In this document: piece by piece, positions 9,680-32,576 of the stretch
How the letters are laid out: each line of letters opens with the position of its first letter
Position numbering within the stretch: position 1 is the first letter of the stretch
The notes under the pieces: model-generated
Told to the model about the DNA's origin: nothing
Seen by the model: the letters and a program-made list of their open reading frames with translations, nothing else
The model's database searches: none
NCBI GenBank assembly: GCA_028699085.1
Contig: JAQVVF010000002.1
Coordinates: forward strand, 3,074 to 67,073
Length of the DNA: 64,000 nucleotides
Direction of reading: 5' to 3'
From: Patescibacteria group bacterium
Lineage (GTDB): Bacteria > Patescibacteriota > JABMPQ01 > JAQVVF01
Position numbers and translations under genes: made by a program

Positions 9680-10762
9680 TTAAAATCTCAACATCGCTCC
9701 AATTCCACCCATTCCCGCTAATTTTTCATTATCTTCCACAAATTCAATTTTTGCTTTATGGCTAAAAACCTTTTGAACTAATTCATCAACTACATCCTTG
9801 ACATCTTCTGTTTTGAAACTGCAATAAGGACAAACAACTTCATCAAGACCCAAAAAATCACAATTTGGACATTTCTTTCCAGTTGTACTTAATTTAGAAT
9901 CAAGCAACAAAGTTTTAACATCTCTCTCTTGTGCTGCATTCAAAACATTTTTCAAACCGGCAACAGCTAGCTGACCATTCAAACTATTATTTAATTCTTC
10001 AACAAGCATTGCCTCATTTTTTCTTTCTACTTTTTCTTGAACTTGCAATGACTGTTCTAAAAAATGTTCATTAGGCTTGAATAATTCTGTATAAAATTCA
10101 CCTACTACTCTATTTTTCAATTCTGTATGCAAAATTTTCTTTAATTCCGGCAAGATCTCTTTTGATCCAGCTAAAATCAGTCTATCAAATCCTTTTTCTT
10201 TCCAAAATTTAAAAAGCTGATCATTGATCTTTTTCAAATGACGATGCACATGCTCTTCGATATGCAAAGCCTCGCCTTGTTGTACTAATCCGCCTTGATC
10301 ATGTTTGCCAGGAAACTCATCAAAAATATAGCTAAAATCTTGAATCACACCCAAAAAGACTGTAAACAATTTTGCTTTTTCTTTATCACAAACTACAACA
10401 CAATATCTTTCTAATTCATCAAGGACTTGTAACAGTTGCTCAATATGAACATTTTTTTCAACATAAGCTCCTGTCTTAATTGGACAAGGAAATTTATAGA
10501 TTGACCAAAAATTTTTAGATGGACTAGCGTAAAATGCCATGCCTCGGATTTTTTTATCCAATCTCAAATCAATCCATTCTTCAACTTGTTTTGTTGCTTC
10601 ACTTCCCAATTTTTCTTCAACATTTTTCAATAAATCTTTTAGCTTATTTTCAATTTCTTCTGGCTTGTAACGTCTTTGATCGCAATTTAAATAAAGTGTT
10701 ACTACATCCTCTTTGTCGCTTTGTAAACGATTTAATTTTGTTATGTCTTTATTTTCTATCAT
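9680..10762 (-). CDS. Bacterial archaeo-eukaryotic release factor family protein (baeRF, eRF1-like)
   Basis: eRF1-like layout: TLYL, GMAF, GKHDQGGxxQ loop, LILAG, CxxC..CxxC, C-terminal GGIGAMLRF. Confidence 0.85.
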   Translation of the reverse strand: MIENKDITKLNRLQSDKEDVVTLYLNCDQRRYKPEEIENKLKDLLKNVEEKLGSEATKQVEEWIDLRLDKKIRGMAFYASPSKNFWSIYKFPCPIKTGAYVEKNVHIEQLLQVLDELERYCVVVCDKEKAKLFTVFLGVIQDFSYIFDEFPGKHDQGGLVQQGEALHIEEHVHRHLKKINDQLFKFWKEKGFDRLILAGSKEILPELKKILHTELKNRVVGEFYTELFKPNEHFLEQSLQVQEKVERKNEAMLVEELNNSLNGQLAVAGLKNVLNAAQERDVKTLLLDSKLSTTGKKCPNCDFLGLDEVVCPYCSFKTEDVKDVVDELVQKVFSHKAKIEFVEDNEKLAGMGGIGAMLRF

Positions 10763-10775
10763 ATTTTTAATTTAT

Positions 10776-10805
10776 TGTAGGGAGCAAAAATTTTTGCTCC
10801 CTACA
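10776..10805. repeat. Perfect 30-bp palindrome, GTAG-REP-like
   Basis: TGTAGGGAGCAAAAA|TTTTTGCTCCCTACA. Confidence 0.75.
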
Positions 10806-10818
10806 TATTTTATCACAA

Positions 10819-10847
10819 TTTACAAAATTTTAAAAATCAAGTATAAT
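10819..10847 (+). promoter_or_regulatory. Promoter of the tRNA-Gly/Thr cluster
   Basis: TTTACA-17 bp-TATAAT. Confidence 0.7.
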
Positions 10848-10877
10848 TTCTCAAGAATAATAAATAATAATTCACGA

Positions 10878-10948
10878 GCGAGTATAGCACAGTGGTAGTG
10901 CGCTTGCTTCCCAAGCAAGATATGTGAGTTCGATTCTCATTACTCGCT
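10878..10948 (+). tRNA. tRNA-Gly(CCC)
   Basis: Acceptor GCGAGTA/TACTCGC, anticodon arm CTTGC-TTCCCAA-GCAAG, U73. Confidence 0.93.
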
Positions 10949-10952
10949 ATCC

Positions 10953-11135
10953 GCCAGAGTAGCTCAGTCGGCAGACCTGCCCGCCAGAGCCAAAGCCCGT
11001 GTAGCTCAGTTGGTAGAGCAATGCTTTCGTAAAGCAGAGGTCGTCGGTTCGATCCCGACCATGGGCTCTGGCTTTGGCAGGCGGGGCAACACTTTCGTAA
11101 AGTGAAGGTCAAGAGTTCGATTCTCTTCTCTGGCT
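10953..11135 (+). tRNA. Interrupted (outer) tRNA-Thr(CGT); parts 10953-10975 and 11086-11135
   Basis: The joined parts give a 73-nt cloverleaf: GCCAGAG/CTCTGGC, D-stem GCTC/GA|GC, CACT-TTCGTAA-AGTG, AAGAG-TTCGATT-CTCTT; 110-nt insertion between positions 23 and 24. Confidence 0.8.
10995..11067 (+). tRNA. tRNA-Thr(CGT), intact, nested inside the outer tRNA
   Basis: Acceptor GCCCGTG/CATGGGC, anticodon arm TGCT-TTCGTAA-AGCA, T arm GTCGG-TTCGATC-CCGAC. Confidence 0.92.
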
Positions 11136-11146
11136 AAAAAACAACG

Positions 11147-11187
11147 TTCGTAAAGCAAAGGTCGAAAGTAGATCCTGGAAAGTGGCT
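11147..11187 (+). pseudogene. Degenerate 3' remnant of a third tRNA-Thr(CGT)
   Basis: TTCGTAAAGCAAAGGTCG matches the inner tRNA TTCGTAAAGCAGAGGTCG at 17 of 18 nt; ends TGGCT like the outer tRNA; no complete cloverleaf. Confidence 0.45.
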
Positions 11188-11208
11188 AATATTTAAAATT
11201 AAACATTC

Positions 11209-11233
11209 AAAAACCCGTCATTCGACGGGTTTT
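11209..11233. terminator. Bidirectional terminator
   Basis: AAAACCCGTC-ATTC-GACGGGTTTT. Confidence 0.8.
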
Positions 11234-15711: not shown

Positions 15712-17502
15712 CTATTTTTTTAGTACTTCTAGAAATGCTTCTTGTGGAATTCTGACTCTACCTAATTCTTTCATCTTTCTTTTTCCTTTTTTCTGCTTCT
15801 CTAATAATTTCTTCTTTCTTGTTACATCTCCGCCATATAATTTTGCAATGACATCTTTTCTCATTGCTTTAATATCTTCACGTGCAATTATTTTTCCGCC
15901 AATTGCTGCCTGCAACGAAACTTGAAAACTTTGTTGCGGAACAACATTTTTTAATTTTTTAACAATACTTTTTGCTTCTGTCATAACTCTTTCTTTTGGG
16001 ATAATGCGAGATAAGGCCAATACTAAATCATTAGCAACTAGAACATCAAGTCTTACTAGATCTTCAACTTTATAATCAGAAATTTCATAATTAACTGATG
16101 CATATCCGCTTGATACACTTTTTAATTTATCATAAAAATCAGTGATCACTTCAGCTAATGGTACATCATAATGCAAAATAGATCTCGTCTCATCCAAATA
16201 TTCTGTATTTTTGTATTGACCTCGATAGAATTGCATCAGCTCCATCAGTTTTCCAACATAAGTACTTGGCGAGATAACGTCCATTGAAACCCAAGGCTCA
16301 GCAATACTATCAACCAAGCTCAAATCTGGCAAATCAGCAGCACTAAATATTGTGATTTGTTTTTTTGATTTTAAATTTATTTTGTAGGCTACTGACGGGA
16401 CAGTAATTGTTAAAGTTAAACCAAACTCTCTTTTTAATCTTTCAGTAATAATTTCTAAATGCAATAATCCTAAAAAACCACAACGAAAACCTCGTCCTAA
16501 AGCTTTTGATGATTCAACTTCATAATCTAATGATGCATCATTTAATTTTAATTTTCCTAAAGCATCTTTCAGATTATCAAAGTCATCAGCATTCTCTGGA
16601 TAAAAAGACGCAAACACCATTGGCTTTACTTCTTTATATCCAGGCAATGGCTCTGTAATATTCGGACTTGCCATTGTATCACCAACACGACATTCTGAAA
16701 CTTCTTTCAATCCAGCAACAACGTAACCTACTTCCCCAGCTGTTATTTTATCAATTTCAACCTGCTTTGGTTTAAAAACACCAACTTCCAAAACTTCCGA
16801 TTCTTTTTCTGTCGACATCATCTTAATAGTGTCTCCAATCTTTATTGATCCACTAAAAATTCTAATGTAAGCAATTGCACCTTTATATTCGCTGAATACA
16901 GAATCAAAAATCAATGCCTTTAATTCATTATCATCTTCTTTTTTTGGAGCAGGAATCTTTTCAACAATCTTTTCTAAAACTTGAGCCACGCCTTCGCCAG
17001 TCTTTGCCGATATCTTCATAATTTCATTTTCTTTGCAACCCAATAGCTGTACGATTTCTCGACAAACTTTTTCTACATTTGCGTTTGGTAAATCTATCTT
17101 ATTAATAATTGGAACAATTTCTAAATCATGTTCTAACGCTAGATAAAGATTAGCAATTGTCTGCGCTTGTACGCCTTTTGTCGCATCAACCAAAAGCAAA
17201 GCTCCTTCACATGCAGCAATACTTCTTGACACTTCATAAGTAAAATCAACATGACCTGGAGTATCAATCAAATTCAAAACATAATCCTTACCATTCGAAT
17301 TATAATTTAACCTAACAGGCTGAAGCTTAATTGTAATTCCTCTTTCTTTTTCCAGATCCATTTGATCTAAAAGTTGTGCCTGCATTTTCCTTTTTTCAAC
17401 AGTATTTGTCAATTCCAAAAGACGATCAGCCAAAGTTGATTTTCCATGATCAATATGCGCAATAATACAAAAATTTCGGATACTCTTGATATCTTTTACC
17501 AT
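15712..17502 (-). CDS. lepA: Elongation factor 4
   Basis: IAHIDHGKSTLADR, DTPGHVDF, GFLGLLH, LYGGDVTRKKKLL. Confidence 0.98.
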   Translation of the reverse strand: MVKDIKSIRNFCIIAHIDHGKSTLADRLLELTNTVEKRKMQAQLLDQMDLEKERGITIKLQPVRLNYNSNGKDYVLNLIDTPGHVDFTYEVSRSIAACEGALLLVDATKGVQAQTIANLYLALEHDLEIVPIINKIDLPNANVEKVCREIVQLLGCKENEIMKISAKTGEGVAQVLEKIVEKIPAPKKEDDNELKALIFDSVFSEYKGAIAYIRIFSGSIKIGDTIKMMSTEKESEVLEVGVFKPKQVEIDKITAGEVGYVVAGLKEVSECRVGDTMASPNITEPLPGYKEVKPMVFASFYPENADDFDNLKDALGKLKLNDASLDYEVESSKALGRGFRCGFLGLLHLEIITERLKREFGLTLTITVPSVAYKINLKSKKQITIFSAADLPDLSLVDSIAEPWVSMDVISPSTYVGKLMELMQFYRGQYKNTEYLDETRSILHYDVPLAEVITDFYDKLKSVSSGYASVNYEISDYKVEDLVRLDVLVANDLVLALSRIIPKERVMTEAKSIVKKLKNVVPQQSFQVSLQAAIGGKIIAREDIKAMRKDVIAKLYGGDVTRKKKLLEKQKKGKRKMKELGRVRIPQEAFLEVLKK

Positions 17503-32106: not shown

Positions 32107-32576
32107 AACTCAAGTAAGTCAGTAAGCCAGGTTCTGTACCGCACATAAAATTTTATGTGCGGTAGTGATTATCTCTCTAGACTGTCGATCGCTCGACAGC
32201 TCAAGCCCCAGTTTATATTGGGTTGCATCAGGTAGAGTTTGCCCTATTGTTATGTCACCATAACAATCTGTGGTCTCTTAAACCACTCTTTTCACCCTTA
32301 CCTAGCACATAAATGCACTAGGCGGTATATGTCTCTGTGGTACTTGTCCTAGCTTCAAAACAACCAGTTCTCTTAAGAAGAACCGGATATTTCTTATACT
32401 TGGTTCCATTTCGGAACTACCACTTAATTCGGAAGTCGGAAATCGGAGCTTCAGAAATCGGAACGATCCGACCTCCGACATCCGATATCTGACTTCCGAA
32501 TTGATGCCCGGACTTTCCTCCCCGCACATAACTTTTGTAAATCATGCACAGAGCAATCACTCAACTTACTTGAGTT
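32107..32576 (-). ncRNA. rnpB: RNase P RNA with a 77-nt hairpin insertion
   Basis: GAGGAAAGTCCGGGC, AGGGTGAAA and ACAGAACCTGGCTTA conserved blocks; P1 AACTCAAGTAAGT/ACTTACTTGAGTT; promoter TTGACA-17-TATTAT at 32610-32582. Confidence 0.93.

Follow-up and report, generated by a model that had tools for sequence, protein, structure and literature searches.

A tRNA-Thr(CGU) gene nested within another tRNA-Thr(CGU) gene of a Patescibacteria genome: a probable case of cognate gene replacement by a family of tRNA-carrying hairpin cassettes

Elements that depend on tyrosine or serine integrases integrate into tRNA genes and make these whole again by means of a partial copy. Y1/HUH systems insert without target duplication; REP sequences are extragenic, and we know of no REP that carries or replaces genes. 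Group I introns interrupt bacterial tRNA genes, and one paper reportedly treats such introns in tRNA genes of Patescibacteria. Further systems that can be compared are the bacterial MITEs Correia, RUP, ERIC and Nezha (PMC3184786), the REP/REPIN hairpins with their RAYT (TnpA-REP, Y1 HUH) transposases (PMC6006769) and SegB, a free-standing GIY-YIG homing endonuclease of phage T4, which recognizes a T-loop motif, cuts tRNA genes, drives their replacement and moves its own region by double-strand-break repair (PMC2330249). Archaeal non-canonical tRNA introns use a bulge-helix-bulge, and introns of tRNA-Trp nest a box C/D RNA (PMC4090602).

The locus described here combines traits of several of these systems. 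It is located in a window of 64,000 nucleotides, i.e., the whole stretch of DNA that was analyzed, from a Patescibacteria group bacterium (GCA_028699085.1, contig JAQVVF010000002.1, positions 3,074 to 67,073), and it consists of the following parts:

10953..10975, + strand: outer (very probably invaded) tRNA-Thr(CGU), positions 1-23; the joined outer gene is 66/73 identical to the uninterrupted gene of genome G001
10976..10994, + strand: 5' cassette arm of 19 nt with the motif CCTGCCCGCCA of the family, assigned by the family arm pattern
10995..11067, + strand: cargo, a complete tRNA-Thr(CGU) (ARAGORN, Rfam), the sole uninterrupted Thr(CGU) among the 53 ARAGORN tRNA calls of the 1.17-Mb genome
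11068..11085, + strand: 3' cassette arm of 18 nt with the motif GGCAGGCGGG of the family, assigned by the family arm pattern
11086..11135, + strand: outer (very probably invaded) tRNA-Thr(CGU), positions 24-73 (ARAGORN on the joined halves, stem-pair check)

The preliminary description of this DNA had joined 10953-10975 to 11086-11135, and ARAGORN indeed calls the resulting 73 nt as tRNA-Thr(CGU). As had been noted, its stems are intact, with 20/20 checked pairs being Watson-Crick pairs (7 acceptor, 4 D, 4 anticodon, 5 T), next to an A-A mismatch at 27:43. The inner gene at 10995-11067 was likewise recovered as a complete tRNA-Thr(CGU) by an ARAGORN call and by Rfam with 65.1 bits, and the closing stem has the composition given for it, i.e., 16 of its 17 positions are paired, two of them as G-U, and the remaining one is a C-A mismatch. 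Inner and joined outer gene are identical in 52/73 positions and both have an ARAGORN threshold score of 116 (genome median: 119); with introns allowed, ARAGORN miscalls the locus as tRNA-Ala(GGC). The fold of the 183-nt nest reaches a z of -5.3 compared to dinucleotide shuffles. The ends of the outer gene duplicate stretches of the cassette arms exactly (10951-10959/10981-10989, 9 nt; 11066-11073/11128-11135, 8 nt) and G001 differs there; these repeats may be due to chance, to templated change or to a remnant of an earlier cassette. The nest is uncovered in X20, the sole RNA run examined, which is evidence neither way.

The check for misassembly proposed earlier gave a clear result, as the junctions of the nest are bridged by contigs from three studies, the source sample possibly being among these. 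A contig of X7 covers 10932-11129 and thereby both junctions with 1 difference, and contigs of X1 (10600-11037, 0 differences) and X2 (11030-11180, 2 differences) cover one junction each. Together with the recurrence of the identical architecture in other genomes, this leaves next to no probability for an assembly artefact, in favor of which nothing was found, though tRNA repeats here do break contigs.

The nest lies in a small tRNA locus with these further features:

10819..10847, + strand: sigma-70-like promoter, probably driving tRNA-Gly and the nest (11/12 consensus matches, pattern match only)
10878..10948, + strand: tRNA-Gly(CCC), conserved upstream neighbor (ARAGORN, Rfam); the order Gly-Thr is the same in G001 and G002
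11147..11187, + strand: third, older tRNA-Thr(CGU) of the G002 type, a decayed 3' half (aligned locally with the undamaged allele of G002, 3' flank included)
11210..11233, + strand: terminator-like hairpin with U-tract, resembling those in G001 and G002 (read from the sequence; absent from the terminator scan list)

The gene at 9680-10762 on the - strand encodes a baeRF10/eRF1-like protein and is divergent from the tRNA promoter. The search of relatives for the empty outer gene, suggested in the preliminary description, succeeded in the same-genus genome G001, where the same tRNA-Gly is followed by an uninterrupted Thr(CGU). The seven positions in which the outer gene differs from it comprise three acceptor changes, a compensated T-stem pair and two unpaired sites; all of them preserve the structure, and the outer halves carry no damaging change, in agreement with the lack of decay reported before. 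Such undamaged halves fit a recent insertion but also continued function. The second same-genus genome, G002, has a different allele at the locus, the 3' half and flank of which align to 11147-11206 of the window. Therefore, a third, decayed Thr(CGU) half follows the nest, its T-arm damaged and its 5' half absent, which had been overlooked at first reading, and thus the locus was probably replaced twice. As the simplest history we infer two steps, in which a G001-type gene first took the place of a G002-type gene and the cassette then entered the G001-type gene. One contig of X2 matches 10780-10950 with 1 difference and continues with a G002-type acceptor start (depth 2.3, short side 30 nt), a weak hint at an uninvaded allele in a very close organism.

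The same nesting, which was also to be searched for in relatives, occurs in G002 as an independent and intact case of Thr(GGU) in Thr(GGU), with the same arms and at the same 23/24 site. Furthermore, the Thr and Arg relics that hold the cassettes of G013 and G014 are heavily interrupted. A full gene is also present at the own Thr(GGU) locus (G000:C21:15418-15650; L506), where it is located in the anticodon arm of a relic of this gene that is riddled with hairpins, and nearby (G000:C21, about 15960-16180; L506) Thr(UGU) is followed by a hairpin-interrupted shadow copy.

The nest is not unique, it is one of a large family. A scan of GTDB with a pattern of arm, tRNA start and arm returned at least 119 stretches, and by hand count 50 of the 80 titled records among the matches listed name Patescibacteria/CPR groups. 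The pattern matched 8 of 401 sampled genomes of the phylum and its reversed control none; class-level searches covered 16 and 4 genomes only. Among the matches listed, a tRNA lies between the arms in 105 of 122 distinct pattern matches, the other 17 being mostly due to chance and one having a disrupted cargo; the pattern required an intact cargo start and therefore cargo intactness is partly built into these numbers. Because the pattern favors Thr and Arg, metagenomes were scanned with the arms alone, which gave 118 distinct matches among those listed, 32 with a tRNA, seven of these reversed relative to the arms, and 86 without. Pooled, this amounts to at least 134 distinct tRNA cassettes including the window's own, counted as distinct sequences and not as independent events. 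They carry 20 anticodons of 10 amino acids among the matches listed, and a threonine-only cargo was rejected accordingly.

The cassettes are uniform in their architecture. In the 105 cassettes among the matches listed from the pattern scan, the length is 108-118 nt and the arms are fixed across genomes as two conserved, imperfectly complementary, GC-rich sequences, most of which start with CCTG (same 105). The C-A mismatch of the arms is near-invariant (101/105 among the matches listed), partly fixed by the pattern, and the inner arm positions covary, position 15 being C-G in 76/105 and G-C in 21/105 among the matches listed. The paired fraction in these 105 listed cassettes is 0.93, compared to 0.63 across cassettes, kinship being ignored. 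The junction lies between A and G in 67/105 among the matches listed. No target-site duplication is present in the nest, as removal of exactly 110 nt restores the 73 nt of the host and the junction cannot slide; precise excision also restores an intact tRNA host in 58/134 cassettes among the matches listed.

These hosts reveal a tight relation to the cargo. Among the matches listed, 54 of the 58 intact hosts have the anticodon of the cargo, compared to a mean of 8.3 and a maximum of 22 in 20000 shuffles, and in the four that do not match, a second hairpin is present or the anticodon arm is slightly changed. The cassette is inserted in the D-arm in 40 of these 58 hosts among the matches listed (mainly at 21/22 and 23/24), in the anticodon loop in 16 and in the T-loop in two. 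In 40 intact hosts among the matches listed for which scores were compared, the cargo scores above the host in 25, equal in 6 and below in 9 (p = 0.001). The remaining hosts, 76/134 among the matches listed, are damaged or unrecognizable; in 46 of these 76 a junction in the D-arm or the anticodon loop can still be seen, and the automatic assignment gave no result for 30. The 46 junction-bearing hosts among the matches listed comprise 16 with the same anticodon, seven with a different one by a crude motif, which on inspection turned out to be second hairpins or damaged loops, and 23 uncalled. Altogether, at least 104/134 tRNA-carrying cassettes are located in tRNA-derived flanks, with no clear non-cognate landing among the matches listed. 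Serial nesting, i.e., a cassette within an earlier cassette, was observed in L085, L113 and L151, and the own Thr(GGU) locus shows it in a decayed state. As a mark of hosts, a T-to-C change relative to G001, located four bases 5' of the junction, was rejected (7/45 hosts, 11/67 cargos, p = 1). In L304 (G002:C1:33441), L307 and L483, eroded cassettes were observed in which the 5' arm and a full tRNA (Arg UCG, Pro CGG and Thr CGU, respectively) are kept and the 3' arm is gone; a tRNA-like or hairpin-rich 5' remnant precedes arm and tRNA.

The arms also occur without a tRNA, and then in many places other than tRNA genes. In relatives they form GC-rich hairpins of about 40 nt, often within other repeats, and the 5' arm motif reaches up to 37 copies per genome, with one exact copy in the own genome. 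An intact tRNA host was found for 0/86 arm-bounded matches without tRNA among the matches listed and for 0/25 short or mid hairpins; dead tRNA stubs (L497, L502) have a related, empty hairpin in the D-arm, at site 21/22. At least 48 elements (L351-L470) have the same arms around non-tRNA cargos of 64-72 nt, and related cargos share their target context. Two different such cargos are located at one site (L351, L386) within an apparent transposase reading frame, presumably that of an IS91-type gene. For 48 of the 86 matches listed, the longest match of the non-tRNA cargo to the flank (mean 6.40; shuffled 6.18 +/- 0.15) and to the whole locus (8.56; shuffled 8.32 +/- 0.14) gave no excess identity. 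These cargos fold no better than shuffles, and Rfam detected in 20 of their loci only tRNAs and one riboswitch, the strongest checked tRNA hit (L446) being outside the element. Carriage by phages was considered and dropped: viral contigs contain 0 full cassettes, 120 viral hits of the 5' arm alone looked like chance, and two viral hits of the arm pair reduce to one distinct match with short hairpins and no tRNA.

Most likely, 10976-11085 is an insertion in the DNA and not an intron, and the nest is very probably a recent member of this family of tRNA-carrying hairpin cassettes that replaces the cognate gene. Of the three options raised in the preliminary description, the one borne out by the cognate match and the decay of hosts across the family is the insertion that brings along a substitute gene of identical anticodon. 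This reading builds on what was directly observed: how the nest is built, that an empty allele exists, that there is a family in which cargo and host match, that hosts decay in relatives and that nesting recurs. The segment 10976-11085 would be a non-autonomous mobile cassette of two arms around a whole tRNA gene, which would insert at the DNA level and with blunt ends at the 23/24 site of the tRNA-Thr(CGU) already present. The insertion breaks the D-stem of the host and thus would turn the outer halves into a recent pseudogene. The promoter of the host would transcribe the cargo, which might be cut from the precursor and supply the tRNA; RNase P and RNase III are encoded in the genome. In the predicted precursor fold the stems of the cargo form, and because the 5' leader and the trailer of the cargo pair with each other (A-1:U73, probability 0.96) its release is not self-evident. 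We infer that the cargo is the working copy. As the cargo would supply the tRNA, the cell would survive and the cassette would persist, and later cassettes would hit the new gene, resulting in serial nesting.

One alternative is removal of the cassette from the RNA. It would then be a new bacterial protein-spliced intron, a nuclease cutting at the base of the stem, RtcB ligating the exons and two tRNAs resulting. The exons are intact here and in 58/134 cassettes among the matches listed, the arm sequence is conserved together with its near-invariant C-A mismatch (101/105 among the matches listed, partly pattern-fixed), the sites 21/22 and 23/24 recur and a ligase exists in the genome, since RtcB is encoded; the intact 23/24 nest in G002, the 58/134 intact hosts among the matches listed and the presence of RtcB count against the replacement reading. 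However, the central helix of a bulge-helix-bulge has 2/4 pairs here and at most three in 40/40 intact nests tested, so that the motif, scored in its strict form and not seen at first reading either, reaches 4/4 in none of them. The tRNA splicing endonuclease EndA (PF01974) was found in 0/41 genomes, i.e., the own genome (97.7% complete) and 40 relatives, and in 4/4 archaeal controls. The 110-nt insert, 73 nt of which are tRNA, matches no Rfam intron, be it at the gathering threshold or at E <= 5, and the same library detects the group I intron of the genome as a positive control:

G000:C27:9830-10520 (L505): group I intron, 616-nt insert in tRNA(CAU), 85 bits

Moreover, most hosts are damaged, and the same arms also break the transposase-like frame at L351 and L386. 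The strongest argument against an intron is an asymmetry: if the arms could be spliced, a tRNA gene should put up with them whatever they enclose, but among the matches listed no arms lacking a tRNA lie within an intact tRNA (0/86, next to 0/25 short or mid hairpins). The option of splicing is thus not supported, and an intron of this kind is very unlikely. The option that the cargo is released and the outer halves, held together by the 17-bp stem, act as a nicked two-piece tRNA gains something from the predicted precursor fold, in which the outer acceptor stem has a probability of 0.98-1.0 and a fold with all outer stems is just 5.1 kcal/mol above the minimum. Against it, the pair probabilities of the outer D-stem are <=0.01 in the same fold, steric conflict with both the ribosome and the core of the tRNA is to be expected from a D-stem that bears a 17-bp branch, and the cassette also splits anticodon loops and T-loops, where a two-piece tRNA of this kind could not decode; this option is not supported and is extremely improbable. 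A local origin without any mobile cassette, in which a resident gene was duplicated into a hairpin insertion and then diverged, would account for the three of 54 nests among the matches listed in which cargo and host are identical in at least 68 of about 73 positions and for a cargo that is slightly nearer to its own host than to other hosts of the same anticodon (0.77 compared to 0.70 near D-arm sites). It is highly improbable, as cargo and host share 52/73 positions here compared to 66/73 for host and G001, the own cargo is closer to cargos of other genomes (62-63/73), the median identity of cargo and host is 54 of about 73 among the matches listed, and the length and arms of the cassette are fixed across genomes.

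If the insertion with replacement is compared to the described systems, the cassette departs from each class in a defining trait. With MITEs it shares the size of about 110 bp, terminal inverted repeats, the long stem-loop, the lack of a transposase gene and the empty allele in a relative; it differs by having no target-site duplication, by a core that is a whole tRNA gene and by sitting almost only in the tRNA gene of the cargo's anticodon (PMC3184786). Similar to REP/REPIN sequences, its arms also occur in relatives as cargo-free, GC-rich, multi-copy hairpins of about 40 nt and the own genome has three Y1 genes in palindrome-rich surroundings; blunt ends and the lack of target duplication also resemble hairpin-recognizing Y1/HUH systems. 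In contrast to REP/REPIN, the arms lack a GTAG/GGAG foot and the Y1 genes were by eye not seen to be flanked by arms (PMC6006769). Integrative elements of tRNA genes likewise disrupt a tRNA gene, supply a replacement and leave fragments, whereas the cassette carries the whole gene, measures 110 bp and uses many positions of the tRNA; the 110 nt contain no ORF, no integrase and no duplication of the attL/attR type, and the cargo is divergent (52/73). The D-arm and non-canonical sites and an RNA nested within a tRNA insert are shared with the archaeal introns, but the cassette has neither a bulge-helix-bulge nor an endonuclease and its hosts decay (PMC4090602). Bacterial group I introns share the interruption of tRNA genes, and the 110-nt insert differs from them by having no ribozyme core or Rfam intron match. 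The genome's small GIY-YIG genes, three of four of which have a 5' tRNA stub on one side and the complete cognate tRNA on the other, recall SegB (PMC2330249), but the cassette itself encodes nothing and no GIY-YIG gene was found between arms in the spans searched. Overall, the cassette might be viewed as working like a passenger-carrying MITE or REPIN and, in its outcome, like tRNA-restoring integrative elements.

Concerning the mobilizing enzyme we can offer guesses. A hairpin-recognizing Y1/HUH transposase is a tentative candidate; by eye, the palindromes around the three Y1 genes differ from the arms. A small GIY-YIG nuclease appears doubtful, and an enzyme other than these two is to be judged just as doubtful. 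Three of the four small GIY-YIG genes of the genome lie between a hairpin-interrupted 5' stub and the full tRNA:

G000:C12:70322-70760: GIY-YIG gene, Gln CUG
G000:C18:96570-97010: GIY-YIG gene, Gln UUG
G000:C11:35-430: GIY-YIG gene, Asn

The same design of stub, GIY-YIG gene and full tRNA was also observed at Tyr, Cys and Asn in other genomes. These loci may constitute a second tRNA-replacing system, reminiscent of T4 SegB. With exact or near-exact arms and limited spans, the search for genes bracketed by arms gave no long ORF in 70 arm loci, 0/151 genomes with a gene at one span of about 260-320 nt, and no pair of arms around small GIY-YIG ORFs in 24 parsed loci of six genomes.

The cognate match between cargo and host may originate from homology-guided placement, to which we would give an even chance; the other half of our guess goes to generic targeting of tRNA genes filtered by lethality together with spread of the whole nest by recombination. 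It is conceivable, and tentatively put forward, that the cassettes represent a new, cargo-guided class, in which the looped tRNA gene would serve twice, as the replacement and, by pairing with its chromosomal cognate, as the guide. Selection alone predicts copies of the tRNA at neutral sites too, yet tRNA-derived flanks account for at least 104/134. That cargo-free arms lie at non-tRNA places and tRNA-carrying ones in tRNA flanks is in favor of cargo guidance. Near D-arm sites, the similarity of cargos to their own host (0.77) exceeds that to other hosts of the same anticodon (0.70; 0.0005 of resamples); in the acceptor stem the same comparison (0.62 and 0.59) is not significant, nor is it at anticodon-loop sites (n = 8). 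The raised similarity could also be explained by shared lineage or later gene conversion. An argument from the dispensability of C34 tRNAs, according to which non-cognate hits should survive while 32/35 are cognate among the matches listed, was rejected as weak; C34 tRNAs may be needed because the genome keeps all of them.

In the full-text literature, from which most subscription papers are absent, no description of such tRNA cassettes was found, and the family of tRNA-carrying hairpin cassettes is apparently undescribed. It would provide minimal bacteria with an apparently undescribed way to replace and to move essential tRNA genes horizontally by a 110-bp element without any protein, and the cassettes would explain split or 'intron-containing' tRNA calls in Patescibacteria. 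If cargo guidance is true, one enzyme and one pair of 19-nt arms could, after exchange of the loop, be directed to any tRNA gene, and a serial, horizontal turnover of essential tRNA genes across Patescibacteria would result, which would be categorically new. If the loop directs the insertion, this would be a natural, precise, scarless and sequence-programmable insertion system.

Two further RNA loci were observed in the window. Five tandem tRNA-Arg genes (CCG, CCU, UCG, UCU, GCG) are located at 785-1296, four of them with encoded CCA; a second genomic copy exists for 4/5 of their anticodons, and the array was not found in G002 or G003 and is present in G001 (80%). The RNase P RNA, of class A, is encoded at 32107-32572 on the - strand.
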